A stretch of DNA of 36,602 nt from Verrucomicrobiota bacterium (GCA_040388725.1 JAZKBH010000137.1:46258-82859), one strand, 5' to 3'; counted from the stretch's first letter, positions 5,100 to 28,443 are shown. The notes: generated by a model not told the origin, from the sequence alone. Translations and numbers: made by a program.

Positions 5100-5104
5100 G
5101 ATCG

Positions 5105-13620: not shown

Positions 13621-13670
13621 TCGATTCAATTTGTATCAGGTTTATTTTTTGTAAACTCCATATTTAATAA

Positions 13671-13686: not shown

Positions 13687-13798
13687 GTTTTGATGTTCAT
13701 TTTCATCGCTCAAACCAACGAAAACCATACCCCCCCGGCTTGGGCGTTCTGAATGCTAACCTAAAAAAAATTTAATATATTTTCCTATCACAGTTTTC

Positions 13799-14056: not shown

Positions 14057-14253
14057 GAGAGTCCTCCTTGTTTTAGAATGCTCTTCAAAATAAACCCCGA
14101 AAATTCTACTTTCTTTCCGTGGAAGGGTACAGTGACTTTTCCAGGTTTTGTCGGATGTTTAAAATGATAGTGGCTTCCCGTCACTCCCGCTTTTCTCCAT
14201 CCATCATCCTCTAACATTCTCACAATTTCTAAAAAAGTCATCACCCGTTTCAT
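14053..14253 (-). CDS. hicA: HicA-family mRNA-interferase toxin
   Basis: LEDDGW...GSHYHFKHPTKPGKVTVPFHG...ILKSILKQGGL is a HicA signature. The start is probably the ATG at 14253 or 14241; the track ORF start at 14310 runs into a repeat arm. Confidence 0.85.
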   Translation of the reverse strand: MKRVMTFLEIVRMLEDDGWRKAGVTGSHYHFKHPTKPGKVTVPFHGKKVEFSGFILKSILKQGGLS

Positions 14254-14302
14254 TCTCTGCCAGTGGGAGTTAACCACTCCCTCGACAAGAGAGAAAAAGA
14301 GA

Positions 14303-14470
14303 TTAACCACAGAGGCCGCCGAGTTGCGCGGAGGAATACCGGAATTTATTGAACATGGATGGAAAACCGATCTTTTGATCGTTCGTCTCCTTCCCTGGAA
14401 AGCTCGATACCTTGTTGAATATAATGGTCTTTCGTATTCCTCTGCGCAACTCGGCGGCCTTTGCGGTTAA
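14303..14470. repeat. long imperfect palindrome, type 1 (TTAACC.CAGAGG... arms)
   Basis: Arms 14303-14339 and 14434-14470 are complementary at 34 of 37 positions, with a 94-nt spacer. TTAA at both termini. Confidence 0.9.
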
Positions 14471-14517
14471 TCTCTTCGACTTTTTCCTCCTCATCCTCTA
14501 TCCTCCCCAACTCTTCC

Positions 14518-16389
14518 ATGTTTACTTATCCGAAAATTTACGATGTCATTGTCATTGGTGCAGGTCATGCAGGCGTCGAAGCCGCGCTCGCGGCTGCCCG
14601 TATGGGAGCACAGACCTTATTGCTCACAATGAATTGTGACACGATCGGACAAATGTCCTGTAATCCTGCGATCGGTGGACTCGCGAAAGGCCATCTCGTC
14701 CGTGAAATCGACGCTCTCGGGGGAGAGATGGGAGTGAATACGGATGCGACGGGAATTCAATTCCGCATGCTCAATGCTTCCAAAGGCCCCAGTGTTCGTG
14801 GCCCACGCGCTCAATGTGATAAAAAAGCTTACCAATTTCGCATTAAATATACTTGTGAGCGTCAGCCCAATCTCGATGTCAAACAAGGCCAAATCGCCGA
14901 TCTATTAACGGAAAATGATGTCATTCAAGGAGTTACAACGAATTTAGGCGTGCACTATCGAGCAAAATCGGTCGTCGTTACGACTGGAACCTTTCTTCGC
15001 GGTCTTTTGCATGTGGGCCTTCAAAATCAGGCCGGCGGCCGTATGGGTGATAGTGCCAGTGGTTTTTCCGATTGTTTAAAACGACTTGGCTTCGAGGTCG
15101 AACGTCTCAAAACAGGAACTCCACCCCGCCTTTTAAAACAAAGCATCAACTTTGAAGGCCTGGCCCTTCAACCCGGTGACTTCCCTCCTCCTGCTTTTTC
15201 TTACATGGTCCATACCCTTAAAAAGGGTCCTGACGAGCTTTTCACCTTAAATCACTATCAAGACGGAAAGTTCCACGTGGAACAAATCCCTTGTTGGGTG
15301 ACCTATACCTCTTCCAAAACGCACGATATTATCCGAGCGAACCTGGATAAGTCTCCGATGTACTGCGGGATAATCGAAGGAGTCGGTCCTCGTTATTGCC
15401 CCTCGATCGAAGATAAGGTCGTTAAGTTTGCCGACAAAGACCGCCATCAACTTTTCCTCGAACCTGAAGGCCGGCATACCGACGAGATCTATCTCCAAGG
15501 CTGTTCAACTTCCCTTCCTTTTGAAGTTCAGTATGAATTCATTCGCTCGATCGAAGGCCTCGAAAATGCCGAGATCATGCGGCCTGGATATGCCGTCGAA
15601 TATGACTTCTGTCATCCGACCCAACTTTTCCCCACCCTTCAAACGAAAAAGATCCAAGGTCTTTACTTTGCAGGTCAAATTAACGGAACCTCCGGATACG
15701 AAGAAGCCGCCGCTCAAGGTCTCATGGCCGGAATCAATGCCGCTCTTCAAGTCCAAGGAAAACCGGAATTGGTCCTCGGGCGTCATGAAGCCTATATCGG
15801 CGTTTTAATCGATGATCTTGTGACAAAGGGAACTCAAGAGCCCTATCGAATGTTTACGTCGCGCGCCGAATATCGCCTCCTTCTTCGCCAGGACAATGCC
15901 GATCAGCGTTTAACCGAAAAAGGACATGCCATCGGACTGGCAACCCCGGAACGCTACGCTCATTTTCAACAAAAAATGGCCACGATTGATTCGGTCCGCA
16001 CCCAAATACAATCGACCAAAATCATCCACGACCGCCTTTCCGATCTCCTTCGACGTCCGACTTTTTTCTGGAAAGATCTTCCTCCCGAATTTCAAAGCGT
16101 GGAAGAAGAGGTCGCGATCCAACTCGAGACCGAGTTTAAGTATTCCGGCTACATCGCCCGTGAAATGGCTCAGATTGAGAAAATGAAATCCTCCGAAGAG
16201 AAGGGGATTCCCGATTGGCTTGACTACGACACGATCCCTGGACTCAAAAAAGAAGCCCGCCTCAAATTAAAACAAATCCGACCTCGTACCTTTGGTCAGG
16301 CCGGTCGTATCAGCGGAGTTAATCCCAGCGATCTCAGCCTCGTCATGGTCTGGACACAACGGGGACCGCAAACAGAAAATTCGATTTAA
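14518..16389 (+). CDS. mnmG: tRNA uridine 5-carboxymethylaminomethyl modification enzyme MnmG (GidA)
   Basis: FAD motif YDVIVIGAGHAGVEAALAAARMG, with GidA-type blocks along the full length. The ATG at 14518 is preferred over the TTG at 14461, which lies inside a repeat arm. Confidence 0.95.
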   Translation: MFTYPKIYDVIVIGAGHAGVEAALAAARMGAQTLLLTMNCDTIGQMSCNPAIGGLAKGHLVREIDALGGEMGVNTDATGIQFRMLNASKGPSVRGPRAQCDKKAYQFRIKYTCERQPNLDVKQGQIADLLTENDVIQGVTTNLGVHYRAKSVVVTTGTFLRGLLHVGLQNQAGGRMGDSASGFSDCLKRLGFEVERLKTGTPPRLLKQSINFEGLALQPGDFPPPAFSYMVHTLKKGPDELFTLNHYQDGKFHVEQIPCWVTYTSSKTHDIIRANLDKSPMYCGIIEGVGPRYCPSIEDKVVKFADKDRHQLFLEPEGRHTDEIYLQGCSTSLPFEVQYEFIRSIEGLENAEIMRPGYAVEYDFCHPTQLFPTLQTKKIQGLYFAGQINGTSGYEEAAAQGLMAGINAALQVQGKPELVLGRHEAYIGVLIDDLVTKGTQEPYRMFTSRAEYRLLLRQDNADQRLTEKGHAIGLATPERYAHFQQKMATIDSVRTQIQSTKIIHDRLSDLLRRPTFFWKDLPPEFQSVEEEVAIQLETEFKYSGYIAREMAQIEKMKSSEEKGIPDWLDYDTIPGLKKEARLKLKQIRPRTFGQAGRISGVNPSDLSLVMVWTQRGPQTENSI

Positions 16390-16504
16390 ACCACCAAGTT
16401 AAATTCAAAGGACAGGCAAAGGAAAACATCTTTTGCTAGTGGTTTTAAAACAAATATCTTCGAAGCTTCTTTGTTTTTCCTGGGTGGTTCAATTCACTGC
16501 ATTT
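16387..16504. repeat. imperfect palindromic element, type 5 (AACCACCAAG... / ...CTGGGTGGTTCAATTCAC)
   Basis: The left arm overlaps the mnmG stop codon. aaccaccaag (16389-16398) pairs with cctgggtggtt (16479-16489). The loop carries ggttttaaaacaaa. Related arms occur at 17315-17340, 22088-22119 and 22645-22683. Confidence 0.6.
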
Positions 16505-16611
16505 GATCTGCAGACCAGATTTGACGACTTTCTCTCCGACTTCTATTGAAATGTAATGGTTATACCTTCCCCTTACTTGATTTTCAAAAAAACATATGTA
16601 TGATCATCTGT

Positions 16612-16845
16612 ATGCGCACAACTCTGGTGATCGATGATCCTATTTTTATGAAAGCCAAGAAATTCGCTTTGGAACATGGGGTGACGTTAGGAGCATTAAC
16701 CTCTCAGGCGCTTCAAGAACATATACAAAGACATCTCGAACCTCGACGCACTGAAAAATTTTTAATGCCTCTTTTCGGAGGATCAACGCACGTCGCTCAT
16801 TCTCCTCAAGAAATTGCTCAATTTCGTGACGAAGGGCGTTCGTGA
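16612..16845 (+). CDS. vapB: VapB-type antitoxin (type II)
   Basis: Starts MRTTLVIDDPIFMKAKKFALEHGVTLGAL, as in DUF2191/VapB-like antitoxins. Overlaps the start of the downstream PIN toxin. Confidence 0.75.
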   Translation: MRTTLVIDDPIFMKAKKFALEHGVTLGALTSQALQEHIQRHLEPRRTEKFLMPLFGGSTHVAHSPQEIAQFRDEGRS

Positions 16846-17291
16846 TCATCCCGGATGTTAATCTCTGGATCTATGCCCATCGCCAAGAAGATCCCGCTCA
16901 TTCATTTTATCGAAATTGGATTGAAATAATCCTGAATGGAGATGAACCGGTCGGACTCTCTTCTTTAACTGCAACGGCATTTGTCCGGATTGTCACACAT
17001 CCGAATTTCCCTCCTCTTCCAACACCACTTCGCCAAGCAATCGGAGTCATCGATGATCTCAAAAACTTTTATAACTGCCGTTGGCTTCTCCCAGGGCAAG
17101 ATCATTGGCAAATCACCAAAATGCTTTGCGAAAAAACAACCTCGATCGGAAAACATGTCGCCGATGCGCAGCATGCAGCGATCGCCATAGAATACCATGC
17201 TACATTCGTAACACGTGATCGGGATTTTCTAAAATTCAAGCCTCATGGCCTTCACGTCGAAATTCTGGAGCCGCCATATTCCACCCCCTAA
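16842..17291 (+). CDS. vapC: VapC PIN-domain toxin
   Basis: MIIPDVNLWIYA...ADAQHAAIAIEYHATFVTRDRDF carries PIN acidic-residue contexts. GTG start overlaps the vapB stop. Confidence 0.85.
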   Translation: MIIPDVNLWIYAHRQEDPAHSFYRNWIEIILNGDEPVGLSSLTATAFVRIVTHPNFPPLPTPLRQAIGVIDDLKNFYNCRWLLPGQDHWQITKMLCEKTTSIGKHVADAQHAAIAIEYHATFVTRDRDFLKFKPHGLHVEILEPPYSTP

Positions 17292-17314
17292 AAGCCCTCT
17301 GAAATCCTTCCTTT

Positions 17315-17340
17315 CGTTGGTGGTTCACTTCACTGCATTT
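17315..17340 (+). repeat. solo type-5 right arm; direct repeat of 16479-16504
   Basis: 17319-17340 (ggtggttcacttcactgcattt) matches 16483-16504 at 21 of 22 positions. Confidence 0.85.
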
Positions 17341-17785
17341 ATAGCGGCCGTTCAAATCGATACCGCCGCTCGGATTCTAAAATCGGAATATCATTAATCG
17401 AAGCATCGCGACGGCTCATCAAACCCGTCGAATCGAATTCCCACTGCTCATTTCCATGGGAGCGATACCATTGCTGCTTTTCATCATGCCATTCGTATTC
17501 GAAGCGGACGGAAATCCGGTTATCCGTAAAAGCCCATAATTCCTTCATCAACCGATAGTCCGTCTCGACCGCCCATTTTCGTTTTAAAAATTCCACCACG
17601 GCAACTCGGCCGACTAAAAATTCGGATCGATTTCGCCAATGCGTCTCCTCCGTATAAGCCATCGCCACACGCAGGGGATCACGGGTATTCCACGCCATCT
17701 CCGCCGCTTTAACTTTTTTAAGCGCCGTTTCATGGGTAAAGGGAGGACGAATGGCCGTCGGATTCGGAATAAAAATTTCAGGCAT
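17339..17785 (-). CDS. DUF1348-family (NTF2/SnoaL-like) protein
   Basis: [24 protein letters not shown]...HWRNRSEF...[10 protein letters not shown]...[11 protein letters not shown]...[10 protein letters not shown] matches the DUF1348 pattern along its whole length. Confidence 0.85.
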
Positions 17786-17827
17786 AAAAATCCTTTACAA
17801 AACGATCGTTTGGTTATCAAGGAAAAA

Positions 17828-18041
17828 CAATTTTCACACAGTCCCTGTGTGATAACGCAAAGTCTAATAGGTACCCATTTGGAGAGCCGAGGGGAGGCAA
17901 CTAGGACAGCAGTTACGTAGAGTCACAAAGAGGTCCAAGTCTCCACCCAAAATTCAATGCAGGTTTTGATCGGAAAATTAAACTTCCTTCGGATCTGAAG
18001 GGGAGAAACTTGGGCTGCTTCGCGACTTTGCGTGAAAATTG
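17828..18041. repeat. imperfect palindrome with TTTTCAC termini
   Basis: caattttcac...gcaaagtc (17828-17864, interrupted by a 7-bp-stem hairpin cacacag/ctgtgtg) is complementary to gactttgcgtgaaaattg (18024-18041). Confidence 0.6.
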
Positions 18042-18049
18042 TTTTAGGT

Positions 18050-18601
18050 TTAACTCTTCTTCCACTCCGCAATACGCTTCTTTAATAAACCTTTCCCTTG
18101 AAGCCGCTCCAATAAAAGAAGTCCCTGCACCTCAGCCACCATCGATTTTGCCCGCGCCATTGATTCCCTTTTCGAAATCTTTTTTCTCTCCAATCCCTTG
18201 GCCAACGCCTTTTCCCAATTTGAAAAATACCGCTGACAGGCTTTCAATAAAACCGGATGTGAAAGTCCGACTTCTAAGGTCAGATTCCCCGGAAGACACC
18301 CTCCTTCACGCTCCGTGAAATAAACCAATGTTGCCTCCCAGGCTTGAATCCACGCTTTTTCGATCGATCCATGCGAATCCAATAGAGGGGCAAAAACCTT
18401 TCGTTCAAACCACTCTTCGACCCACTTCACCGCTTCAATGGCCAATTCATCTTTGTTTTTAAAATAATGATAAAGACTCCCCTTCAATAATCCGGTCGCC
18501 TCTCCCAAATCGGCCATCGAGGTCTGATGAAATCCTCGGGTCTTAAAACAATGAACCGCAGCTTGAAGGATCGTATCACGATCGGTTTTTTGAATGGGCA
18601 T
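18050..18601 (-). CDS. TetR/AcrR-family transcriptional regulator
   Basis: N-terminal HTH: ILQAAVHCFKTRGFHQTSMADLGEATGLLKGSLYHYFKNKDEL. Confidence 0.9.
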   Translation of the reverse strand: MPIQKTDRDTILQAAVHCFKTRGFHQTSMADLGEATGLLKGSLYHYFKNKDELAIEAVKWVEEWFERKVFAPLLDSHGSIEKAWIQAWEATLVYFTEREGGCLPGNLTLEVGLSHPVLLKACQRYFSNWEKALAKGLERKKISKRESMARAKSMVAEVQGLLLLERLQGKGLLKKRIAEWKKS

Positions 18602-18660
18602 AACGTGATGTTTAGGAATTCCGAAAAAATAACAAGGGGGAAAACAAAAACCTAAATTTA

Positions 18661-18850
18661 CATGGTGCCGAATCCGTTGGGAACGGATGAGACGATCGAG
18701 TGAATACGAGAGGCTGCAGGAGGCAGCCAGAGTGAGGTGGCACCGAACGAATCATCATGGAATTAGAGAATTACTCCAGATGTCACGGCCAGAGAAAAAT
18801 GAGAAATACACAAATTTACATGGATTTAAAAGGCAGATACAAAGGATAAA
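18661..18850 (+). repeat. TA-associated ~190-nt conserved non-coding element, copy A (candidate structured RNA or small mobile insertion)
   Basis: Aligns by eye with 25213-25405 and the reverse complement of 26901-27095. The ~127-nt core starts catggtgccgaatccgttgggaacggatgagacgatcgagtg. 1-nt indels and an in-frame TGA argue against coding. Confidence 0.85.
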
Positions 18851-18947
18851 ATTAAAAAAGGGGGTTATGGTAAAAACCTATTCTCTCCGATCCCTTTGTG
18901 AAATGATTTCCATCCCTTGTATCGGCCATTTTTATCCATGTAAATTT
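18812..18947. repeat. long imperfect palindrome, type 2 (AAATTTACATGGAT... arms); the left arm is the tail of element copy A
   Basis: The arm from 18812 (40 nt, ending 1 nt beyond my copy A boundary) and the reverse complement of 18907-18947 agree at 33 of 40 positions. 56-nt spacer, T-rich flanks. Lies just past the vapC-2 stop, so it could act as a bidirectional terminator. Confidence 0.8.
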
Positions 18948-18953
18948 TTGCCT

Positions 18954-19394
18954 TTAAATACCCCCAACCAAAAACTCCACGATCTCCTCTCCTTCAGGAA
19001 GTGGAATGCTCTTCAATTTCAGATCAAAAGTTAAAAGCTTCAATTGATGCTCTTGGCAAATCCCGAGCAAATACGCATCGCTCAGTTGTTGATGGCTCAC
19101 CAATATCGAAACAAAAGGCTCAACCACTTCTGGAAATGACCTCTTTTCCAGGATGATTTGGTGCCGGGGATCTTCCATGTTTTTTTGTAGAAGCTCGGTC
19201 GATTGAGCAAGCGAAAGCGGTTGGAAAAAGACTTTCGGATTTGTACTAATTCGGAGAAACCCCGCCTGCGTCAAATGCACCGTTGCCCACGCATGAGCTC
19301 CCTTTTTCAAATACCACGCCTTGAATGTCGAATGAAAAGGATGCTGCGGAATAAATGCCGCCAAAAGAACATTCACATCATAAAGATAAGTCAT
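18954..19394 (-). CDS. vapC: VapC PIN-domain toxin (second copy, divergent from the first)
   Basis: MTYLYDVNVLLAA...LSDAYLLGICQEHQLKLLTFD is PIN-domain organisation. The upstream antitoxin's stop is directly adjacent to this gene's ATG. Confidence 0.8.
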   Translation of the reverse strand: MTYLYDVNVLLAAFIPQHPFHSTFKAWYLKKGAHAWATVHLTQAGFLRISTNPKVFFQPLSLAQSTELLQKNMEDPRHQIILEKRSFPEVVEPFVSILVSHQQLSDAYLLGICQEHQLKLLTFDLKLKSIPLPEGEEIVEFLVGGI

Positions 19395-19619
19395 CTAACC
19401 CTCTTCCTTAAATTCACGAACAGCCTTACTCAACGCAAGAGGATCTGCCAAAGCCAATTCCACCATATGAAACGGATAATCGTCCGATGGAGATTGGGTT
19501 GGATAAAATTTAGGCCGCGCCATCTCGGAAAGAGCCTTCCCTAACGAAATCCCCTTCAATTGCGCCAAATTCTGTGCCGCCTGAAAAACATCTTCATCCA
19601 AATTCACCGTCGTTCTCAT
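19395..19619 (-). CDS. vapB: VapB-type antitoxin
   Basis: MRTTVNLDEDVFQAAQNLAQLKGISLGKALSEM parallels the 16612 antitoxin N-terminus. The ATG at 19619 is preferred over the longer track ORF. Confidence 0.75.
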   Translation of the reverse strand: MRTTVNLDEDVFQAAQNLAQLKGISLGKALSEMARPKFYPTQSPSDDYPFHMVELALADPLALSKAVREFKEEG

Positions 19620-19727
19620 GAAATAAGGATAATATGATGTATTGATGTCGTCAACATCATGATGCATACCTCTCATACATATTAAGTAGTGGAGACGGGG
19701 CTAAACGACAAGGGGATATCAAAAAAT

Positions 19728-19843
19728 ATTTCACATGGATTAAAAATGCCGATCCAAGCGATAAAATCAAAAGTCATTATTTTGCGTTTTAAGAAATAAA
19801 TAGTTTTCTATCCCTTGTATCAGCATTTCCATCCTGTGAAATT
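19728..19843. repeat. imperfect palindrome, type 2
   Basis: atttcacatggattaaaaatgccgatccaagcgataaaa versus the reverse complement of tctatcccttgtatcagcatttccatcctgtgaaat, about 75% complementary. The loop contains ttgcgttttaagaaa. Confidence 0.75.
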
Positions 19844-19857
19844 AATGCCTTTAGGTC

Positions 19858-20565
19858 TTACGCATGCACCTCTAACTCCGCCTCACTTTTCACGACCTTC
19901 AACATCTTTCCATCCACCATCTGCCCGATTCGATCCGCATAATGGTAAATCCGATTATCATGCGTGACCACAATCACACATCGGTCTTGGGATTGAGCAA
20001 CCGCGGCCAACAACTCTGTAATTTTAGCTCCGGTCGATCCATCCAACGCGGAGGTCGGTTCATCACAAATAATGAGCCGCGGATCGTGGACTAATGCCCG
20101 CGCAATCGCCACCCGTTGTTGTTGTCCGCCCGAAAGTAATGCGGGATATTCATTGAACTTCGTCTCCAATCCCACCGTCGAGAGCATCTCTTTCCCACGG
20201 ACGACGGCCTTTGAGTATGACATCCCATTAATAAGAAGGGGGACGATCGCATTATCCAAACAAGTTAAGGTCGGGATGAGATTAAATTGCTGAAAAATGA
20301 ACCCGATGTTTTTCTTCCGAAACTCCGTCACTTTCCCACTACTCATTTCATGCAGGGGATTTCCAAAAACATTGACCTCACCCGTATCCCCTTTGAGAGT
20401 TCCAGCGATGATACTCAACAACGTCGTCTTTCCGCAACCTGAGGGCCCGACGATCATAAAAAATTCTCCGGATTGAATCTCTAAATCAATCCCCTTCAGC
20501 GCCATCGTCTTCGCTTCACCCTTCCCGAAAGACTTCTCCAAACCCCGTACTATCACAGCACTCAT
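19858..20565 (-). CDS. ABC transporter ATP-binding protein (LolD/MacB/FtsE type), no permease partner in the window
   Basis: Walker A GPSGCGKTT, signature LSGGQQQRVAIARAL, Walker B LIICDEPTSALD. ATG at 20565 (MSAVIVRG...). Confidence 0.9.
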   Translation of the reverse strand: MSAVIVRGLEKSFGKGEAKTMALKGIDLEIQSGEFFMIVGPSGCGKTTLLSIIAGTLKGDTGEVNVFGNPLHEMSSGKVTEFRKKNIGFIFQQFNLIPTLTCLDNAIVPLLINGMSYSKAVVRGKEMLSTVGLETKFNEYPALLSGGQQQRVAIARALVHDPRLIICDEPTSALDGSTGAKITELLAAVAQSQDRCVIVVTHDNRIYHYADRIGQMVDGKMLKVVKSEAELEVHA

Positions 20566-20589
20566 TCCAGGCACCCAAAACCAAAGATC

Positions 20590-20696
20590 TTAACCGCAGA
20601 GGCCGCTAAGGAACGCTGAGGAATACCCACTTTATTTTGTTTTTTAAAACCAGCAATGCATTTACCTTTGCGCTTCTCTGCGTCCTCTGCGGTTAA
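20590..20696. repeat. imperfect palindrome, type 1
   Basis: The left arm 20590-20626 is homologous to 14303-14339. The right arm 20670-20696 matches 25456-25482 at 26 of 27 positions. The loop has ttgttttttaaaacca. TTAA at both termini. Confidence 0.85.
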
Positions 20697-20707
20697 CAAG
20701 TATTTAC

Positions 20708-21928
20708 TCATACCTCAACCAGACACCGCTCCTTCAACCAAGCCTCCTGGGCAGCCGCATCTTTCACATTTTGGCGACTGATCTCTTTGATAAAATTTTC
20801 GAAATGTTCATGACCGGTTAAAATTTCAATTTCCACGCGAAGGAAGTAAATGGGCACCAAGGATTGCTCCATGCGGGGAATCCGCACTGCATCTTTCTCG
20901 GTCGTAATAATCGCTTTCGCCCCGCGATTTCGTGAGCGAGTCATCAATGATTGCAATTCATCTTCCGAAAACCGATGGTGATCCTCATACGCACGAGAAT
21001 AGATGATGTCTGCTCCGAGTTTTTTCAATCCCGCTTCAAAACTCTCGGGACGGGCAATCCCTGAAAGCGCACTGATTTTCAACTCTTTCAAAAACTCCAA
21101 AGGCATCTGCTCATCATTCGCTACATTCTGCAAATGCAACGCTTGATGCCGACATTCGATCATCGGCGCATGGATATTCAATTCACGGAGTTGCTTTTTT
21201 AAATCGTCGATCGGCGTCCCATCGCACTTCGTAATCACAATCAAATTGGCGCGCTTTAAATGATCGATCGGCTCCCGTAAAGTTCCTCGCGGCAAAAGAT
21301 GTCCGTTTCCAAAAGGGGTCTCACGGTCGACTAAAACAATATCATATCGCTCTTTCAGCGTCAGATATTGAAAGCCATCATCCAAAATCAAGGTATCCGA
21401 GCCAAACTTCTCAATCGCAAACTTTCCGCATTTCACGCGGTTCTTATCCACGACGACAGAAACCCCATCACAATTATGGGCGAGCATGAACGGTTCATCT
21501 CCAGCAAAACGCGAATCCAGAAAAAGGGTTTTCCCATCTGAAACCAAACGCGGAGGATATTCATGTTGTTCTGTAAAAATTCTCGCTTTCATCCGATCCC
21601 ACAGCGGTCGCTTCTGACTTTTATAACCTCTGCTTAAAATCGAAACTTTTCGTCCTGCTTTTGTGAGTTCCTTCGCAATCTTCTCCACCCAAGGCGTCTT
21701 TCCCGTTCCGCCCACGGTCAGATTTCCTACACTGATCACTTGGCAGCCCAAAGAATAAACCGCGAGTCTCCGATTCTCATACCACCGGAGCCGGATGCGC
21801 ATAATGCGACGATACAAAATTGAGAGCCCATGCAAAAACGTCCGGAGCAACGCGGCGCGTTTGCCGTAGCGTCGATCCATAATCACATCGACCGCAAATT
21901 GTTCCAATCGTTCTAAAGGTTTAGGCAT
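20708..21928 (-). CDS. lpxK: tetraacyldisaccharide 4'-kinase LpxK
   Basis: P-loop [22 protein letters not shown], then LSRGYK and DDGFQ blocks typical of LpxK. Longer C-terminus than the E. coli enzyme. Confidence 0.9.
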
Positions 21929-21973
21929 CTCACCTCACCCTAAACTTCCTAGAAGCCGATTCAAACCAAAAAC

Positions 21974-22087
21974 ATATTCACACGAAGGTCACAGAGTAAG
22001 CCGAGGAAAATCCATCCATTCAAATGCTTTGGTATTGAAAACAAAAACGGTCTTTCTCCGTTTCCTCCGATACCTCCGTGTAAAAAT
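21974..22087. repeat. imperfect palindrome, type 3 (TTCACACGRAGG... / ...CCTCCGTGTAAAAAT)
   Basis: Arms 21974-22010 and 22051-22087 are complementary at 26 of 37 positions. The loop has ttgaaaacaaaaacgg. Confidence 0.7.
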
Positions 22088-22119
22088 CTCCTTGGTTTCC
22101 CTTGGCGGTTCAATTTGTG
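22088..22119 (+). repeat. solo type-5 right arm
   Basis: ctccttggtttcccttggcggttcaatttgtg parallels 16470-16500 and 17303-17335. Confidence 0.55.
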
Positions 22120-22148
22120 TTTTTTGAATTTCAAACTAGGCTATTCTT

Positions 22149-22484
22149 ATGATCCAAAGCCTCACCGCCGCGGCCAGCGCCCTTCAGGTCAATTCGACCC
22201 GTCTTGATGTCCATGCGAACAACATCGCGAACCTCAATACCCCCGGCTTTCAGGCACAAATCGCCGACCAAGAGACGGCACCCGGAGGAGGGGTTCAAAT
22301 CAGTAAAATTTCTTCATCCACTGCACCCGGTTCCCCAACGGATTCTGAAAATCCCTCTGAAACCAATAACGTCGACCTCGTGACAGAAACCATCGGCTCC
22401 ATGATCGCCCTCCGCGCCTTCGAAGCCAACGCGAAGTCGATCCAAACCACCGACGAAATGCTGAAAACGCTCACGAAGATTTAA
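22149..22484 (+). CDS. flgC: short flagellar basal-body rod protein, FlgC-like (111 aa), orphan
   Basis: N-terminal rod motif LDVHANNIANLNTPGF and C-terminal NVDLVTETIGSMIALRAFEANAKSIQTTDEMLKTL align with both ends of FlgC. No other flagellar genes nearby. Confidence 0.55.
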   Translation: MIQSLTAAASALQVNSTRLDVHANNIANLNTPGFQAQIADQETAPGGGVQISKISSSTAPGSPTDSENPSETNNVDLVTETIGSMIALRAFEANAKSIQTTDEMLKTLTKI

Positions 22485-22491
22485 AAATTCA

Positions 22492-22594
22492 GTGTCTCGC
22501 ACAACGGCACGACGACCCCACGAAAATTCAGTATTGGTTAAAAACAAAAAGAAATTGTTCTTCCCGTCGCGTCGTAGTGCCGTTGTGCGAAACA
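22492..22594. repeat. imperfect palindrome, type 4 (GTGTCTCGCACAACGGCAC arms)
   Basis: 22493-22516 and the reverse complement of 22566-22594 agree at 22 of 24 aligned positions. The loop has ggttaaaaacaaaaag. Same arm family as 28040-28173. Confidence 0.85.
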
Positions 22595-22600
22595 AATGCC

Positions 22601-22636
22601 TTTTCTCCGTTTCCTCCGTTTCCTCCGCTTCCTCCG
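22601..22636 (+). repeat. four tandem 9-bp repeats (ttttctccg tttcctccg tttcctccg cttcctccg) forming a solo type-3 right arm
   Basis: Read directly from the sequence. Followed by tgtgaaaaatc as in the other type-3 arms (22051-22087, 27106-27140). Confidence 0.85.
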
Positions 22637-22644
22637 TGTGAAAA

Positions 22645-22683
22645 ATCTTCGTCTTCCTTTGCCTTAACTTGGCGGTAAAACCC
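22645..22683 (-). repeat. type-5 left arm in inverted orientation
   Basis: The reverse complement ttttaccgccaagttaaggcaaaggaagacgaag aligns with 16385-16430 (tttaaaccaccaagttaa...ggcaaaggaaaaca). Confidence 0.6.
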
Positions 22684-22693
22684 TTGTCTTTTT

Positions 22694-23998
22694 TTACTGC
22701 AAAATACTTTTCAACCGATGATCCCACAAATGCTCACGAGCCGTCCGCATCTTCGCCTTCGCCCCATTGGCTAGAGCTTCTTCCGGATTCGCTAAAAGCG
22801 CACGGGTCTTGATTTCTAATTCTTCCAGCGTATCTCCCACCGCAATTTCCGGTTCGGGATAACAACTAATCACATCGGGACTTCGTAAATTCACCGAGAC
22901 TCGACCCGAGGCTGCAATTTCAAAAAGCTTTTCATTTCCCGTCGCATCACGAAGCGGGTTGGCACCATTTAAATGCACGGCGTATTTTTGATAATATTCC
23001 GGTAACTCACCCAGATTGATATTTCTCCCGGCTTTGACCCCATACGGAAGCCATTCCGATTCATTCGAATAAACATCGACCAATCCTTGCTCATAAAGTC
23101 GCATCACCAGAGCGGGACGATCATAGCGCGTCACTAATTTCACCAGCATGCAAAAATCGAGAAGGATATTGTTGTCATTCGCAAACGCAAAGGCCTTCGG
23201 ATAAACTTCCCCTGCCATCTTGAGCAATTGCAAAGAAGGGGAAAAAGGATTCGTCGCCTTCACTTCCATCGCCACCGCTAAGAGTTCACGCGTCTGTGGT
23301 TCGAGACGAAACCACTTTTGGATCGCTTCATCCCCTGCCCGCAATAAATGATCCCGACTCATTCGACGCAATTCAATCAAGTCCGCTCCCGACTTCATTA
23401 ATTCAATCGCATCTTTATGCGGCTCGCCGCGAAAACCGGGATTGCCGATAAAGACCGCCTTATCCTTGATCTCGCACGGAAATTTTTGCTTTAAAAACTC
23501 CGCAGGAGCCGCCAACCGAGACGTCATCTGTCGCTCCACCCCAAAAAGCCGTGCCTCTTGAGCCATGCTCTCTCCATAAAAAATATGGCGCACTTTTTCA
23601 TGACGGATAATCGACTGAAATCCCATCTCGCGACTGGAAAACCAGACATTCGTCGGATAGGTGATCCAGCTCCGGAAATCATCAAACCAGATTGAAGTAA
23701 TATCTTTCACTTGGGGTGAATCAAAAAATGGTTCCGGATAAAATAACCAAAAAAGATCAAGCCCGATCACCGTATCAATTTCCAAATCTTCTAAAAAATT
23801 ACTCCAATGAATCGCGAGTCGCTTCAACGGCTTTTCGAGCGATTTGTCTCCCAACATCGATTTCTGAATTCGAGCCGGAAAGGTATCCCGAACCACCGTT
23901 CGATGTCCTAAGCGTTCACAAGCCGATGCCATGAACTCCGTCGTCTTGGCAAACGGAACCGAGTGATCATTTGAAAGAAAAAGGATTTTCCGTTTCAT
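22694..23998 (-). CDS. CgeB-like / group-1-type glycosyltransferase-family protein
   Basis: C-terminal region (NEKLFEIAASGRVSV...LEELEIKTRALLANPEE...REHLWDHRLKSIL) resembles the CgeB-type GT1 C-terminal domain. Paralogous to the upstream gene. Confidence 0.55.
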   Translation of the reverse strand: MKRKILFLSNDHSVPFAKTTEFMASACERLGHRTVVRDTFPARIQKSMLGDKSLEKPLKRLAIHWSNFLEDLEIDTVIGLDLFWLFYPEPFFDSPQVKDITSIWFDDFRSWITYPTNVWFSSREMGFQSIIRHEKVRHIFYGESMAQEARLFGVERQMTSRLAAPAEFLKQKFPCEIKDKAVFIGNPGFRGEPHKDAIELMKSGADLIELRRMSRDHLLRAGDEAIQKWFRLEPQTRELLAVAMEVKATNPFSPSLQLLKMAGEVYPKAFAFANDNNILLDFCMLVKLVTRYDRPALVMRLYEQGLVDVYSNESEWLPYGVKAGRNINLGELPEYYQKYAVHLNGANPLRDATGNEKLFEIAASGRVSVNLRSPDVISCYPEPEIAVGDTLEELEIKTRALLANPEEALANGAKAKMRTAREHLWDHRLKSILQ

Positions 23999-25104
23999 GC
24001 CTTCTCCTCAAGAATGGCCTTCAACCGATGTTCCCATAGCCCCTCATTCTCCACCATGATTTGATCTTTTCGAGCAAGCATATGCCATTCATCAGAATGA
24101 TTCTGAAAATCTGCACGTACCGTCTCCCAATGCTCATCTCCCGATACAACAACCACCCCTTGCCAAGGCCCCACATAAATTTCAGGCGAGAGAAGAATCG
24201 GCACCGATCCCATTGCCATCGTTTCGGGAATCCGTTCATACGGAGGACCTAATAAAGCAGGACTCATGAGATGCAATTGAGCGCGATATCGAGAGAGGAT
24301 AATATTCTTCTCATACGGATCCAACTCGGGACGCGCCGTGATTCCATAATCTTCCAACCCACAAACGGCTCCATAAATATCAAGGTCTTCGCGTCCCGTA
24401 TAAAGATACCAAAGATTCTGAAACGGGATCACGTCTCGCTCAGGCAATTTTTCAAAAGGAGCCAAAAATTCCTGCTTCGATTTACACGACTGAAGGCGCT
24501 TCAAACATTCCGGATCAAAACCCGGGAGATAAGAAGGATCCAACTCACAGGCAATTTTCCCAATCTGCTTCGGACTCGGATCAAGATCGACAAACTCCCG
24601 AGGCGCGCCGGGAGGCAAAAATGACCAGGTCATTCCCGGAAGGATTTGCAGCGTGTCCTGCATATAAAAATGACGGCACTTCTCATGCATGAGTGGTGCA
24701 TGCCACGGTCCGAGCTGGAGTTGATCCCATTCCCAAAAACGTAAAATATCCTTTAACGGATGAAACCAAAGATGATGAATCCACTTTGGTTTGGCCTCTC
24801 GGAGAAAAATATCAGGAACAAGAAGACTGGAAGCATCGAGAGAAATCACATGATCGATCTCAAACCCATAAAGCATCCGCATGAGTTGATCGACCAACGC
24901 ATAACGGGAAAGCTGTCGCTCTTCCTCATCCTCTTCTTTGAGCGTCTCAAAAGCATCCCAAAGACAGGAGACATCCCGTGCCACCACATGGACCCCGATT
25001 CGATCCCCTGCCTCGTATAAAAAACGAGAAAGCTTGCGATGCCGGGGAAACCGATCATCCCCCAACAAGAGTACATTCTGAATACGGGCCGACACGCTTA
25101 CCAT
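23995..25104 (-). CDS. CgeB-like glycosyltransferase-family paralog
   Basis: Shares blocks with the 22694-23998 product: LLLGDD/LFLSND, EIDHVISLD/EIDTVIGLD, HEKCRHFY/HEKVRHIFY, LWEHRLKAIL/LWDHRLKSIL. ATGA overlap between the two genes. Confidence 0.5.
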   Translation of the reverse strand: MVSVSARIQNVLLLGDDRFPRHRKLSRFLYEAGDRIGVHVVARDVSCLWDAFETLKEEDEEERQLSRYALVDQLMRMLYGFEIDHVISLDASSLLVPDIFLREAKPKWIHHLWFHPLKDILRFWEWDQLQLGPWHAPLMHEKCRHFYMQDTLQILPGMTWSFLPPGAPREFVDLDPSPKQIGKIACELDPSYLPGFDPECLKRLQSCKSKQEFLAPFEKLPERDVIPFQNLWYLYTGREDLDIYGAVCGLEDYGITARPELDPYEKNIILSRYRAQLHLMSPALLGPPYERIPETMAMGSVPILLSPEIYVGPWQGVVVVSGDEHWETVRADFQNHSDEWHMLARKDQIMVENEGLWEHRLKAILEEKA

Positions 25105-25147
25105 CCTAGACTGTTTCTCCCCACGGCTTCAATACAAAGAAACATGA

Positions 25148-25482
25148 TTTACCGCAGAGGCGCAGAGGAGATTCAAGGGAATGTCAGAGGCAGGTGAAAA
25201 GAAATTATTTAACATGGTGCCGAATCCGTTGGGAACGGATGAGACGATCGAGTGAATACGAGAGAGCAGCAGGACGCAGCCAGAGTGAGGTGGGCACCGA
25301 ACGAATCATCCTGGAGTTAGAGAATTACCCCGGATGTCATAGCGGAGAAAAATAAGGCAAAGGCAAAATTTATATGAATATAAAAAGGCAGATACAAGGG
25401 ATAGGACAAAAGGCATTGTTCTTTGTTTTAAGAAGTTAGAAATTGTTTTCCTCAGCGCTTCTCTGCGTCCTCTGCAGTTAAA
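25148..25482. repeat. type-1 palindrome whose loop contains element copy B (nested)
   Basis: The left arm tttaccgcagaggcgcagaggag... (25148-25181) pairs with the right arm ttcctcagcgcttctctgcgtcctctgcagttaaa (25448-25482). The loop motif tttgttttaagaag is retained 3' of the insert. Confidence 0.75.
25213..25405 (+). repeat. TA-associated ~190-nt element, copy B
   Basis: Same core as copy A, with about 8 differences in the first ~127 nt by manual alignment. Lies 90 nt from the mazF stop codon. Confidence 0.85.
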
Positions 25483-25494
25483 TCGCCTTTACTC

Positions 25495-25830
25495 TTATGC
25501 CGATCCATACATTTCCACCACCAACTCTCTTAAAAGCTGCGCCCCATTCGGTTTCAAACGATCGATCTTTTTTACCAATCGACTTTTATTCACCGTCCGA
25601 ATCTGATCCACTGCGATATCTGCTTCACGAACTCCACATCGAATCCTCAAACGGCATCTCCAATCCTCCCGAAGCTGACTGGTGATTGGACAAATGACCA
25701 CCGTCTTCAAACATTGATTCCGCATATCATCACTAATTACCACACACGGTCTCGTCTTTCCGATCTCACTTCCCTCTATAGGATCAAGTCGGACAAGATA
25801 GATCTCATAACGCTTAGGAGCGGAGATCAT
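25495..25830 (-). CDS. mazF: MazF/PemK-family endoribonuclease toxin
   Basis: YEIYLVRLDPIEGSEIGKTRPCVVISDD...ICPITS...VDQIRTVNKSRL is the canonical PemK/MazF pattern. Confidence 0.9.
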   Translation of the reverse strand: MISAPKRYEIYLVRLDPIEGSEIGKTRPCVVISDDMRNQCLKTVVICPITSQLREDWRCRLRIRCGVREADIAVDQIRTVNKSRLVKKIDRLKPNGAQLLRELVVEMYGSA

Positions 25831-26117
25831 TTTGCCCTCGATTTCTTTCCCTCATCCCACGGAAGTTCCTCCAACCCATCCTCATCCGTTACAGACCAAT
25901 CCGATTCCACCGCTTCATCCTTTGCCATCGCTTTATACGTCTCTTTCCACGAAAGTTTCGACGTCATCGGCTTTGCGGGACGAAGAACAAGACGATCTTC
26001 AAGGGCTTCCACCAGAATTCCTCCTTCTAATCCATACTTCTCGATCACCGCCTGCGGGACTCGAATTCCCCTTGAATTTCCGATCGCCGTCAGTTTGCAT
26101 TCCAAAAAAGGCTTCAT
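25827..26117 (-). CDS. mazE: MazE-type antitoxin (SpoVT/AbrB domain)
   Basis: KLTAIGNSRGIRVPQAVIEKYGL is the AbrB-like swapped-hairpin motif. ATGA overlap with mazF. The ATG at 26117 is preferred over the longer track ORF. Confidence 0.85.
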   Translation of the reverse strand: MKPFLECKLTAIGNSRGIRVPQAVIEKYGLEGGILVEALEDRLVLRPAKPMTSKLSWKETYKAMAKDEAVESDWSVTDEDGLEELPWDEGKKSRAK

Positions 26118-26364
26118 GTAATTACAGTAATTCCTTTTTGAAAGCGTGTCAAATCCAGGCAGTCTCTTTGAGATCTTGATCATCTTCCTTCAGTAGTCGT
26201 CATCCTTTAAAACGACAAGAGCCAGAGGGAAAAAGATGCATGAATGAAAATGCATTTTACAGTTCAAATACCTTCCTTCGTTCTCCTTTGTTAGAAATTC
26301 TGTTTTGTATTTCCTACGTGTGCGCACTTTGTCGCGAGTTCTACTATCGACTACCAGGAGAAGG

Positions 26365-26679
26365 ATGGATTATGAAATCAACATCGAACTTCAAGCGTTC
26401 GATGATTTGAAGTTGTTTTTAGAGAATGCAGACTACGAACCCCCAGCAGTGCGACATGTTCAAAAGATTTTCCGACAAACACAGCTCTTAAGTCGATTTC
26501 CAAAAACAGGTTCTAAAATATTCGCCCAATCCAAACAAGTCACCGCTCGAAAAAAATGGGCGCATCCTTTCTGGATCATCTACACCATCGACGAAAAAAA
26601 ATCCTTTATTCAAATTATCGAGTATCGACACCACGCAAAGCACCTCGGGAGGAGTCTTTTTTCTGACCCTTCTGGATAA
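26365..26679 (+). CDS. parE: ParE/RelE-family toxin, no upstream antitoxin gene
   Basis: YEINIELQAFDDLKLFLE...LSRFPKTGSKI...HPFWIIYTIDEKKSFIQIIEYRHHAK fits the ParE pattern. ATG at 26365 is preceded by aggagaagg. Confidence 0.75.
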   Translation: MDYEINIELQAFDDLKLFLENADYEPPAVRHVQKIFRQTQLLSRFPKTGSKIFAQSKQVTARKKWAHPFWIIYTIDEKKSFIQIIEYRHHAKHLGRSLFSDPSG

Positions 26680-26812
26680 GCTCTGTTATTTTCCCTTGAA
26701 ATTGATCCAATGAAAGTCCGCTCGTTTCCGTCACGTTCCCCAAACGCCTCTCCAACTCCAAAACATCCGAAAGGGACGCTCTATCAACAGGTTTAAAACG
26801 TGCATTGGACAT
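26615..26812 (-). CDS. hypothetical 65-aa ORF convergent with parE and overlapping its 3' end (possible unconventional antitoxin or non-coding)
   Basis: Only the open frame MSNARFKPVDRASLSDVLELERRLGNV... supports it. The gagg motif sits too close to the ATG, and I recognise no family. Confidence 0.25.
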   Translation of the reverse strand: MSNARFKPVDRASLSDVLELERRLGNVTETSGLSLDQFQGKITELIQKGQKKDSSRGALRGVDTR

Positions 26813-26900
26813 GCCTCTACATTAGTCAATCACCCGTAAGTCGTCAAAACAGGATTCCCACAAACTAAAATAAGAGACTTATAGTTTGTTAGAAACTAGG

Positions 26901-27095
26901 CTTTATCCCTTGTATCTGCATTTTTTATATCCATGTAAATTTTGCATGGGCTTTATTTTTCTCTGATTGTGACATCTGGAGTAATTCTCTAACTCCATAA
27001 TGATTCGTTCGGCGCCCACCTCACTCTGGCTGCGTCCTGCAGCCTCTCGTATGCACTCGATCGTCTCATCCGTTCCCAACGGATTCGGCACCATG
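26901..27095 (-). repeat. TA-associated ~190-nt element, copy C (inverted relative to A and B)
   Basis: The reverse complement matches copies A and B, with about 6 and 9 differences in the core. Lies downstream of parE. Confidence 0.85.
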
Positions 27096-27105
27096 TTAAA
27101 ATTGT

Positions 27106-27155
27106 ATTCTTCCGCTACCTCCGTTCACTCCGTGTGAAATTGCCTTTCGCCTTTA
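27106..27155 (+). repeat. solo type-3 right arm abutting element copy C
   Basis: attcttccgctacctccgttcactccgtgtgaaattgcctttcgccttta parallels 22051-22100 and 22599-22660. Confidence 0.65.
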
Positions 27156-27180
27156 TCCCACTTTGCTTTATAGTATTTCC

Positions 27181-28035
27181 ATGAACCGTCTCTCTCTCTC
27201 CCTCCTCATCGGGATGGGCCTTCTCTCCTCCGCTGTCGCGGAAGAAAAAACGACGACGAGTTCTGAGGGCAAACCTCAGGACAAAGAGTGGCTTCAAACT
27301 TACATCAAGGAGCAACAGAAACTTCAGGAAAATCAACGCGCCGATGCAGACTCTAAGGTCAATCCCTTCAAAGCGATCGAAAAGCCGAATCCTGAAAAAC
27401 CGAAAGATCCTGAAAAGTTCAACCTCCTCACTAATAAAGAAAAAGAAAGCCCGAAAGCCCCTGCAAAAATCGAATCTCCTCGATCGCTCCCTACCGATAC
27501 CACATTCAAGCCATCGATCTCGGGATTTACTCAGGACTCCTTTTATCAACAGCGCCGGGAAATTCAGAGCCGTTCCGCCGTCGAACAGATGGAATCCGGG
27601 GGAAAGAAAGACGAGGAGAATGATCTTAAAAAGGACGATCTCCTCGAAAAAATGCGCCGGGAACGTCTTCAACAAAACCTGAATTCCCCTTCCAATGATA
27701 AAGCTTTCGGCCGCGATATCACGATGCCGAACGACCTAAATCACCCCAATCTCGACGAAGATCATAAAAATCCTTATCTCAACCAAAATCAATCGATACG
27801 AGAGATGGATCGGGATAAATTCGGATCGGAGACCGCCAACCGTCTTCCGACGATCCAAATGATTAAGCCGATCGAAACGCCTCAGATGCTTGAAAATCCA
27901 TCTCTCAACCGCTCCGTCTTCGAAAATCAGAACAATCGCCAACAAAATACGGGTAGTATCTACAATCAGATGATGCTGACCCCCGGCACCGGTAAAAACC
28001 GCGTCCAAGACCCGAATGACTTTTTAAAACGGTAA
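27181..28035 (+). CDS. secreted low-complexity (K/E/P/N/Q-rich) protein
   Basis: Signal peptide MNRLSLSLLIGMGLLSSAVA followed by a charged, proline-rich, likely disordered sequence. The ATG at 27181 is preferred over the TTG at 27163. Confidence 0.6.
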   Translation: MNRLSLSLLIGMGLLSSAVAEEKTTTSSEGKPQDKEWLQTYIKEQQKLQENQRADADSKVNPFKAIEKPNPEKPKDPEKFNLLTNKEKESPKAPAKIESPRSLPTDTTFKPSISGFTQDSFYQQRREIQSRSAVEQMESGGKKDEENDLKKDDLLEKMRRERLQQNLNSPSNDKAFGRDITMPNDLNHPNLDEDHKNPYLNQNQSIREMDRDKFGSETANRLPTIQMIKPIETPQMLENPSLNRSVFENQNNRQQNTGSIYNQMMLTPGTGKNRVQDPNDFLKR

Positions 28036-28039
28036 AGGC

Positions 28040-28173
28040 AGTGTTTCGCACGAAGACACAACGACGCTAAGAAAGACAGGGACTTTTGTTTTAAAAACCA
28101 ATATTTCAATTTCTTTGATTTATTGCTGGAAACTGGCTTTACATTGAGTTCTTTGTGCCGTTGTGCGAGACAT
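28040..28173. repeat. imperfect palindrome, type 4
   Basis: The right arm gtgccgttgtgcgagaca matches 22578-22595 at 17 of 18 positions. The left arm gtgtttcgcacgaagacacaacgacgc is more diverged. The loop has cttttgttttaaaaacca. Confidence 0.75.
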
Positions 28174-28443
28174 CAGGGGATTTTTCAATAACTTTGTGAA
28201 TAACTTGTGCCCAGGAACGAAGAAGTAAGAATAAATAAGCTCCCGATGAGTTTTTTCTTTCCCTCTGATATAAATTCCCCATCTTTTTCACGACTTGTTT
28301 TCGTGGGCAACTCTTACGAGGTCAGTAAATTAGAACAGATTTGGCGAGTTGTTCACGAGAAGAAGAAGAAGGTTCTACCTTTCTTTTTAAATAAAGAAAT
28401 AAAACCATCTTCTAATAACCGTCTTTGAAATGGAATAAATGTT

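Follow-up and report, generated by a model that had tools for sequence, protein, structure and literature searches.

Our analyses of a 36,602-nucleotide (nt) stretch of DNA from a freshwater member of the Verrucomicrobiota (GCA_040388725.1, JAZKBH010000137.1:46258-82859; the whole of this stretch is referred to below as the window) indicate, with a probability that we put at roughly 0.65, that the long imperfect palindromes filling its intergenic spacers between about 14.3 and 28.2 kb are gene-less foldback derivatives, similar to miniature inverted-repeat transposable elements (MITEs), of a small selfish element that carries a GxxExxY gene. The full form of this element is ~0.45 kb in length and consists of two terminal inverted repeats of 25-45 bp and a single gene for a GxxExxY protein (PF13366/TIGR04256, PDDEXK_3) of ~125 amino acids (aa). 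The arms of the palindromes are real and statistically significant repeats that occur across many phyla and are tied to GxxExxY genes, and the site orthologous to one of the palindromes carries such a gene in a close relative.

A sequence-only reading of the window had listed ten palindromes (E1 to E10 below), and each of the ten can be folded into a long imperfect hairpin whose position agrees to within a few bases with the one assigned to it. Palindromes or solo arms are present in 12 of the 14 spacers between 13.8 and 28.4 kb (the block), which bears out the statement that they occupy nearly every spacer of this region. When the best inverted-repeat score of each spacer was compared with 60 shuffles of that spacer, z values of 19.3 for spacer 14257-14518 (E1, 14297-14476, with 43-nt arms that are 93% complementary and a 94-nt loop), 12.0 for 22485-22693 (E8, 22493-22594), 11.2 for 18602-18953 (E4, 18809-18950), 7.2 for 20575-20707 (E6, 20590-20696), 5.6 for 28036-28443, 4.4 for 19677-19857 (E5, 19728-19842) and 4.2 for 21929-22148 (E7, 21963-22098) were obtained. 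Lower values were found for 17786-18049 (2.5; E3, 17824-18045, with outer arms of just 17 bp), 25105-25494 (2.0; E9, 25146-25484, with 25-bp outer arms and a 287-nt composite interior) and 16390-16613 (1.7; E2, 16387-16504, the left arm of which begins inside the mnmG stop codon and is hence clipped in this test). The six spacers tested outside the block (viz. 3209-3318, 7516-7764, 13630-13798, 29539-29813, 32718-33103, and 35868-36602) all gave z values of 1.5 or less, in agreement with the earlier reading, which had noticed no palindromes outside the block, as did one spacer within the block (26119-26372). All repeat pairs but three short ones that were found by self-BLAST of the window fall in 14.3-27.1 kb. 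Repeat detection also recovers the four arm types that had been described, together with direct-repeat families that establish the solo arms as real; one such family comprises 22053-22086, 22602-22644 and 27107-27140, and another pairs 16476-16504 with 17312-17340 at 90% identity.

The arms share a common plan, in which a T-rich, TT(A/C)AC-like end (TTAAC, TTTCAC, TGTCT, or AACC) is followed by two to four purine-rich 7-nt words spaced every 9-11 nt. The consensus of these words is CRCNRAG, with variants (for example CGCAGAGG-CCGCTAAGGAA-CGCTGAGGAA), the words inside one element are often all identical, and the mismatches in the stems are located mostly between words. A regular expression requiring at least two words has 10 matches in the window, compared to 0.96 in shuffled sequences, and 9 of the 10 lie in block spacers, where they correspond to E1, E6, E7, E9, one arm of E3 and a solo arm at 22101-22119. 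Arms with three words occur at a density of 0.27 per kb in the block, 0 in the rest of the window, 0.17 per kb in its relatives, and 0.008-0.011 per kb in 1.3 Mb of other verrucomicrobial mnmG loci. A degenerate 21-mer derived from the type-1 end matches at least 120 stretches of DNA from many phyla (viz. Ignavibacteriota, Cyanobacteria, Acidobacteriota, Bacteroidota, Planctomycetota, Chloroflexota, Nitrospirota, Proteobacteria, and others), in which additional words follow beyond the pattern and many complete hairpins are present. The neighbours of word arms across these phyla are housekeeping genes of all sorts, and the sole neighbouring family that recurs among the matches listed is PF13366 (PDDEXK_3, GxxExxY).

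The association with GxxExxY genes was examined in 80 loci sampled by protein similarity alone. A word arm is present within 250 nt of the gene in 68 of these 80 loci, and on both sides of it in 51; the density of arms is 4.16 per kb beside the gene and 0.31 per kb farther off, and most of the 12 loci missed by the regular expression have word-type inverted repeats with variant words. In the standard layout, 10-20 nt separate the end of the purine-rich arm from the ATG, and 10-20 nt likewise separate the stop codon from the start of the inverted partner arm. Counterparts with matching repeat ends and words were found among gene-bearing elements for type 1 (TTAACCGCAGAGG), type 2 (TTTCACAACGAGGCAGCGAG and TTCACCACGGAGG) and type 4 (GAACCGCCAAGACGCCAAG, from the GxxExxY inverted repeats of Akkermansiaceae, which the arm of E2 resembles), while for type 3 the match (CACAAAGAACTCAAAG) is to E10, the right arm of which shares 86% identity over 29 nt with the inverted repeat of a GxxExxY element from a planctomycete (locus L194). 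The link between word type and protein similarity is weak (61.7% identity within a type vs. 55.7% between types). The GxxExxY gene is oriented in the same direction as both of its neighbours in 19 cases and opposite to them in 2 (binomial p ~2e-4). The median distance from the upstream stop codon to the first word is ~12 nt, and several upstream genes, among them mnmG with E2 in the window, use the TAA of TTAACC as their stop codon; these features fit an element that rides on the transcription of host operons. Facing arms less than 150 nt apart, i.e., gene-less hairpins, number 102 in this gene-enriched sample, compared to 63 pairs with cargo, and among loci chosen by arm sequence ~5 of the 120 listed carry a GxxExxY gene. 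Other cargo that appeared to lie between facing arms turned out to be ordinary host genes located between separate elements.

Close relatives provide the most direct comparison. The closest mnmG proteins (91-92% identity) are from three metagenome-assembled genomes (MAGs) from lakes, viz. L002, L003 and L024, two of which are labelled Methylacidiphilum sp. Phi and one Akkermansia muciniphila. The arms of E1, which consist of TTAACC and three CRCNRAG words, belong to a palindrome orthologous to those upstream of mnmG in L003 and L024. The window and L003 have the order left arm-loop-right arm-mnmG at this site, and L024 has left arm-loop-R1-GxxExxY gene-R2-mnmG, where R1 and R2 are copies of the right arm and the gene matches TIGR04256 (E 1e-42); the excess in L024 is ~536 nt and corresponds to the gene and one duplicated (right) arm. 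The same geometry is observed in the window around a vapBC-like gene pair, which is bracketed by direct copies of the type-4 right arm, viz. that of E2 (16476-16504) and a solo arm (17312-17340, + strand). At other orthologous spacers, on both sides of the ABC ATPase gene and of lpxK, the types of element in the window and its relatives differ, and these spacers are therefore subject to turnover. The interval between mnmG and lpxK is a toxin-antitoxin mosaic in the relatives also, with a gene content different from that of the window.

The loops of the palindromes point to the same origin. The motif TTTGTTTTAAAAAC, which had been described as shared among the loops, is over-represented in the window when up to 2 mismatches are allowed (10 matches vs. 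0.99 expected), and about half of the matches are in loops. The loops and right arms of E5, E6 and E9 can be aligned with the end of the L024 gene, from its last codons (TTT AGT TTT TAA) through its 3' untranslated region (UTR) to R2; in E6, this alignment covers the loop and right arm against the 3' end of the gene and R2. Because the loops align with this gene end, the shared motif is best read as a putative remnant, or stump, of a deleted GxxExxY open reading frame (ORF). In an element from a member of the Cyclobacteriaceae (L323), the arm runs ...AGAGGAATACAAA-ATG, with GGAATAC of the type seen in the window's lineage directly before the start codon, and the last word of the left arm would thus act as the ribosome-binding site of the GxxExxY gene. 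The gene-less type-1 arms of the window's lineage retain this GGAATAC (...GGAATACC). Since elements with different arms share one junction, a single deletion derivative would have been amplified rather than many genes decaying independently, which suggests the amplification of one gene-less derivative within the lineage. In another related MAG (L322, CAMCYL010000110.1, ~4400-5125), what follows a second type-1 left arm, TTAACCGCAGAGGGCGCAGAGTAACGCAAAGGAATAC, is not a right arm but an ORF beginning with MYSTGIDHHKKF... The beginning of this ORF may resemble the N-terminus of IS110-family transposases, a family known to target palindromic repeats.

The gene-less copies in the window would have arisen by deletion of the gene from the full element, leaving the left arm, a remnant of the 5' UTR (GGAATACC), a loop derived from the gene end, and the right arm. 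For movement, the GxxExxY nuclease would probably act on arms in duplex, hairpin or cruciform form and leave completion of the process to repair or recombination by the host, and copies would accumulate where insertion is tolerated, as in the spacers of the fast-turnover toxin-antitoxin block from mnmG to dnaN. The arms may then serve as homology for recombination, by which small gene units could be gained or lost and solo arms and hybrid elements could arise, and template switching inside the hairpin may keep the two arms complementary. When transcribed, the copies would form double-stranded RNA stems of 25-43 bp that RNase III could cut, by analogy with the intervening sequences of 23S rRNA. 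Arms can also multiply on their own, as gene-free tandem arrays show: in three loci from Bacteroidota (L082 1355-1547, L097 2600-3400, and L084 950-1152), arms in the same orientation form tandem arrays with a period of ~73-280 nt that adjoin a GxxExxY gene.

Several observations weigh against the derivation of the window palindromes from a GxxExxY element. The strict word expression is failed by E2, E4, E5, E8 and E10, for which the link to the class is one of resemblance of ends and words only. Neither a GxxExxY gene nor a remnant of one was detected in the window by tblastn, and the alignment between loops and gene end is short (~30-70 nt) and involves one gene copy only. The difference between L024 and the window and L003, which is the sole case of presence and absence, can equally be explained by a deletion between the direct repeats R1 and R2, and no transposition event was seen. 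No direct repeats flank the 42 gene-bearing elements examined, so that no target-site duplication is visible, and a nuclease of 125 aa alone cannot account for integration. Additionally, the exact type-1 subfamily is low in copy number in related MAGs, with 1-2 loci in each of these fragmented assemblies.

The alternative that we rate highest, though still as unlikely, is that the hairpins are RNA elements selected by the host (bidirectional terminators, 3'-end stabilisers, or RNase III sites) that evolve in place and are exploited or shared by GxxExxY genes. The distribution of elements across phyla is in keeping with it, as divergent spacers are avoided (37 tandem, 23 convergent, and 6 divergent) and elements commonly start on the upstream stop codon or only a few bases away from it; from established knowledge, stems of 25-43 bp would also be substrates of RNase III, and the intervening sequences of rRNA provide a parallel (PMC4990558). 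An effect of the long stems at the RNA level is plausible. However, the mismatches carry no strand signal (60 G-T vs. 43 A-C in the sense direction, p 0.11) and are mostly transversions, E1 and E7 are located in divergent promoter spacers, and no Rfam family matches the elements. The earlier suggestion of terminators fares poorly in particular: a consensus scan finds 22 terminator-like sites in comparison to 17.8 expected, none of them at the ends of the large stems, which are not followed by U tracts. Solo arms, chimeras and tandem arrays of arms would make no sense as terminators, and selection in place does not account for the same arms and words recurring across distant phyla with one gene family. 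A promoter scan of the window found no enrichment. The best sigma-70-like match of the block (14396-14425, + strand, TGGAAA-18-TATAAT, 10/12) lies in the loop of E1 and faces mnmG; if this match is real, the mnmG promoter would be within E1.

The derivation from a GxxExxY element must also be compared with two explanations based on known mobile DNA, both raised in outline by the sequence-only reading. An origin of the palindromes as ordinary MITEs from a classical DDE transposon (IS630-, IS5- or piggyBac-like and targeting TTAA) located elsewhere in the genome seems to us very improbable. They are small, non-coding foldbacks with terminal inverted repeats that are present in several copies, as expected of classical MITEs, and their subterminal words are reminiscent of transposons that have several binding sites for their transposase, but the TTAA that had been ascribed to both ends of type-1 elements holds for E1 and E6 while E9 starts with TTTACC, and neither types 2 and 3 nor most gene-bearing elements have it. 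The lack of direct flank duplications noted above also counts against a transposon of this kind, no DDE transposase was found among 135 neighbouring ORFs or in the window, and the arms bracket GxxExxY genes in the great majority of the loci sampled (68/80). Among the candidates that had been offered, the likeness to MITEs is thus the closest, resting on foldback units, terminal inverted repeats, families and further copies in the metagenome, whereas kinship with Correia or ERIC repeats is not upheld for a class that spans many phyla, and in place of an IS630-, piggyBac- or RAYT-type parent, the related autonomous element is the ~0.45-kb GxxExxY unit. Under the remaining candidate, the palindromes would be attC-like sites that delimit toxin-antitoxin cassettes in an array of gene cassettes, either an integron or attC sites clustered without an integrase. 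We regard this as scarcely credible, even though chromosomal integrons typically carry toxin-antitoxin units as cassettes, direct arms bracket vapBC, a gene with one arm is present or absent in L024, and the spread across phyla resembles that of environmental integrons. The type-1 ends (TTAAC...GTTAA) are only loosely like the R'' (RYYYAAC) and R' (GTTRRRY) boxes, from whose consensus they depart at 1-2 positions, and types 2 and 3, E4 and E5 are without AAC and GTT, as are many gene-bearing elements, which end in TTCAC, TGTCT or similar sequences. The stems have symmetric 1x1 and 2x2 mismatches between words, with no extrahelical bases and no unpaired central spacer, and that of E1 is almost perfect over 43 bp. 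Further, mnmG, lpxK and dnaN are among the units, which are found on both strands; no tyrosine recombinase or other integrase and no transposase is encoded in the window; and elsewhere the elements occur singly between housekeeping genes or as gene-free tandem arrays. Repetitive extragenic palindromes (REPs and REPINs) with their RAYT genes were also considered and rejected, as the GTAG/CTAC tag is missing (the ends being TTAAC, TTCAC, or TGTCT) and the associated gene has a PD-(D/E)XK fold; membership in the 23S rRNA intervening sequences was likewise rejected, there being no rRNA in the window.

Beyond the window, we tentatively propose, at somewhat less than even odds, that word-arm repeats and the GxxExxY gene together make up an unrecognised minimal mobile element of prokaryotes. 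This putative element would be ~0.45 kb in length, its sole protein would be a 125-aa PD-(D/E)XK nuclease similar to Cas4 and lambda exonuclease, and it would insert immediately after stop codons, co-directionally with host operons, and would occur in most bacterial phyla and some archaea; its gene-less foldbacks would outnumber it ~20:1 and would account for a large share of the unexplained long intergenic hairpins of environmental bacteria, possibly including false attC or miRNA-like calls. An AlphaFold2 model of the GxxExxY protein (pLDDT 90) consists of a minimal PD-(D/E)XK core, and its nearest matches in the PDB are Cas4 and lambda exonuclease, both of them weak (E 3e-3, TM 0.4-0.47); no solved structure of a GxxExxY protein was found by sequence. 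The family comprises at least 7,994 clusters at E <= 1e-10, archaea included, and PDDEXK_3 has been listed as a family of unknown function with multiple horizontal transfers (PMC3424549). Literature searches on GxxExxY returned nothing on flanking repeats, full-text searches with arm sequences gave unrelated primers only, and keyword searches gave nothing on such repeats; inverted repeats of word arms around GxxExxY genes, and their gene-less derivatives, thus appear to be undescribed, since we found no published account of them. Hairpin-forming MITE-like repeats are in themselves already a known kind. If the proposal is correct, the thousands of members of GxxExxY/PDDEXK_3 would acquire a biological context, as either cargo or engine of a tiny selfish element bounded by hairpins, and an origin would be provided for long intergenic hairpins that are common in Bacteroidota, Acidobacteriota, Cyanobacteria, Planctomycetota, Verrucomicrobiota and others. 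The word arms offer a simple structural rule for annotating such repeats, hairpins composed of them should be flagged as a likely source of false attC or hairpin-RNA predictions, and the arms may promote the gain and loss of toxin-antitoxin and other small genes.

The individual elements of the window differ in completeness. Both E1, located between hicA and mnmG, and E6, in the spacer between the ABC ATPase gene and lpxK, are complete type-1 foldbacks. E2 is a type-4 foldback (AACCACCAAG ... GGTGGTTCAA) with the mnmG stop codon TAA inside its left end. E4 and E5 are foldbacks of the TTTACATGGAT and TTTCACATGGAT types, respectively; E5 has the loop motif GCGTTTTAAGAA, and its left arm and loop are 79% identical to L003 812-886, where the context differs. 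E7, in the divergent spacer between lpxK and the flagellar-rod gene, is a type-2 foldback (ATTCACACGAAGG ... CCTCCGTGTAAAAA), and a solo type-4 right arm (CTTGGCGGTTCAA, 22088-22119, + strand) is found directly 3' of its right arm. E8 is a type-3 foldback (TGTCTCGCACAACGGCAC...), which is followed by a solo type-2 right arm (22599-22647, + strand) with four tandem TTTCCTCCG words and the end GTGTGAAAA, and by a solo type-4-like right arm (CCTTAACTTGGCGGTAAAA, 22645-22683, + strand) similar to a solo arm of L003 (CCTTTAACTTGGCGGTTAATCC). Another solo type-2 right arm (...CACTCCGTGTGAAAT, 27107-27140, + strand) belongs to the direct-repeat family described above. E10 (28040-28173) is a type-3 foldback upstream of dnaN with an exact TTTGTTTTAAAAAC in its loop; the same spacer contains, just upstream of dnaN, a separate AT-rich palindrome (28364-28413, 24 pairs, z 5.6) that does not have word arms.

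Chimeric elements are also present, and two further repeat modules are found in association with the arms. The first of these, X, is ~150 nt in length and occurs in three copies (18657-18808, + strand; 25208-25358, + strand; and 26951-27100, - strand), in the spacer 18602-18953, that of E9 and 26813-27182, respectively. The copies are 88-90% identical overall with a nearly invariant core, and each is preceded by the TT(T/A)ACATGG of an E4-type arm, with a second AAATTTA(C/T)ATG on the far side. The first copy begins just after the TTTACATGG of such an arm; the second lies in the interior of E9, a composite with type-1 outer arms, where it is followed by an E4-type left arm (25359-25403) and a loop with TTTGTTTTAAGAA; and the third forms, together with an E4-type arm, an inverted unit at 26902-27100 (- strand). 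X folds into a structure of several stems (z -2.3 and -3.1 on the two strands) and is non-coding, as shown by the insertions and deletions that distinguish its copies. The window is present in one metagenome run only, from which our read depths are taken; in this run the depth of the first copy of X is 25 vs. ~7, the depth of X in general is ~3-4 times the baseline, and further copies of the palindrome elements are present. An exact 30-mer from X has no match in species-representative genomes, and X has no match in Rfam. The second module, Y, which is also multi-copy, makes up most of E3, which differs in this respect from its description in the sequence-only reading: E3 is a weak outer palindrome with arms of the TTTTCACAC type around Y (17842-17904), which is 85% identical, in inverted orientation, to L003 12093-12158, a copy that sits in the spacer adjoining the ABC ATPase gene. 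In the source metagenome, Y shows extra read depth and variants.

The block is a mosaic located between glycan-utilisation genes at 1-13.6 kb and 29.8-35.9 kb. Its genes are hicBA, mnmG, the vapBC-like pair, DUF1348, TetR and a PIN/antitoxin pair; the ABC ATPase gene, lpxK, the flagellar-rod gene and two glycosyltransferase genes; and mazEF, a parE-like gene, two small ORFs and dnaN. The longest ORF for hicA (14053-14310, starting with GTG at 14310) extends into the left arm of E1 (14297-14339); because the HicA domain begins at residue 28, the true start is probably further in, and E1 would therefore abut it. Scans of metagenome contigs based on lpxK and mnmG found no relative closer than 71% identity, E1 has no BLAST match in a plasmid collection, a scan for tRNA and tmRNA genes in the window found none, and Rfam searches with both gathering and E-value thresholds, covering the window and 18 loci of other phyla, gave only chance matches to miRNA precursors. 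Outside the block, a 967-aa GH115-like gene contains internal direct repeats 537 nt apart (29870-29926/30407-30463 and 30064-30173/30601-30710), suggesting a tandem domain duplication. The AT-rich sequence TCAAATTAATTAATACATTAATTG... is found in inverted copies at 7590-7631 and 13651-13693 (81-83% identity over 35-43 nt), in both of the spacers that bound the glycan-degradation genes at 7.8-13.6 kb; these copies have no relation to the word-arm elements and may represent a shared operator or promoter. The cumulative GC skew turns at ~32-33 kb, beside the AT-rich spacer 32718-33103. An origin-related or parS reading was dropped, as the matches to DnaA boxes in the window are near expectation (9 vs. 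7.1) and do not cluster at 32-33 kb or elsewhere.

Among known systems, the closest described architecture is, by analogy, that of the 23S rRNA intervening sequences with an S23p ORF, which are units of 428-444 nt with a 28-bp terminal stem that are excised by RNase III; they are known from Coxiella burnetii and Leptospira, encode a four-helix-bundle protein, and also exist as hairpin versions lacking the ORF (PMC4990558). The two share the features of a selfish unit of ~0.43-0.75 kb whose terminal inverted repeats form a stem of ~28 bp, one small ORF of unknown function within and co-directional with a host transcript, sporadic occurrence with horizontal transfer, and ORF-less hairpin forms. 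However, the intervening sequences are found in helices of 23S rRNA, encode a different protein family and have demonstrated RNase III excision, whereas the elements described here lie between protein-coding genes, carry a PD-(D/E)XK cargo and have arms of tandem 7-nt words. Bacterial MITEs and foldbacks (viz. Correia, ERIC, Nezha, and Chunjie) resemble them in being non-coding, 100-340 bp in length, intergenic, multi-copy and nested, with terminal inverted repeats, and in being derived by internal deletion from a gene-bearing element; unlike these, the elements described here show no DDE transposase parent or target-site duplication and are not restricted to one lineage, and their arms vary by turnover of words but their loop remnant is conserved, a pattern opposite to that of typical MITE families. 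The likeness to REP/REPIN and RAYT lies in intergenic hairpin repeats that are tied to, and flank, one small domesticated or selfish nuclease gene and far outnumber it as gene-less copies, and the difference in the lack of a GTAG/CTAC tag, in a PD-(D/E)XK protein rather than an HUH Y1 transposase, and in arrays of words rather than a short fixed palindrome. With attC sites, which have defining boxes, extrahelical bases, co-oriented cassettes and an integrase that are all missing from the window, the elements share imperfect palindromes that stand beside small variable genes, including toxin-antitoxin pairs, and in which the sequence varies while the hairpin is kept.

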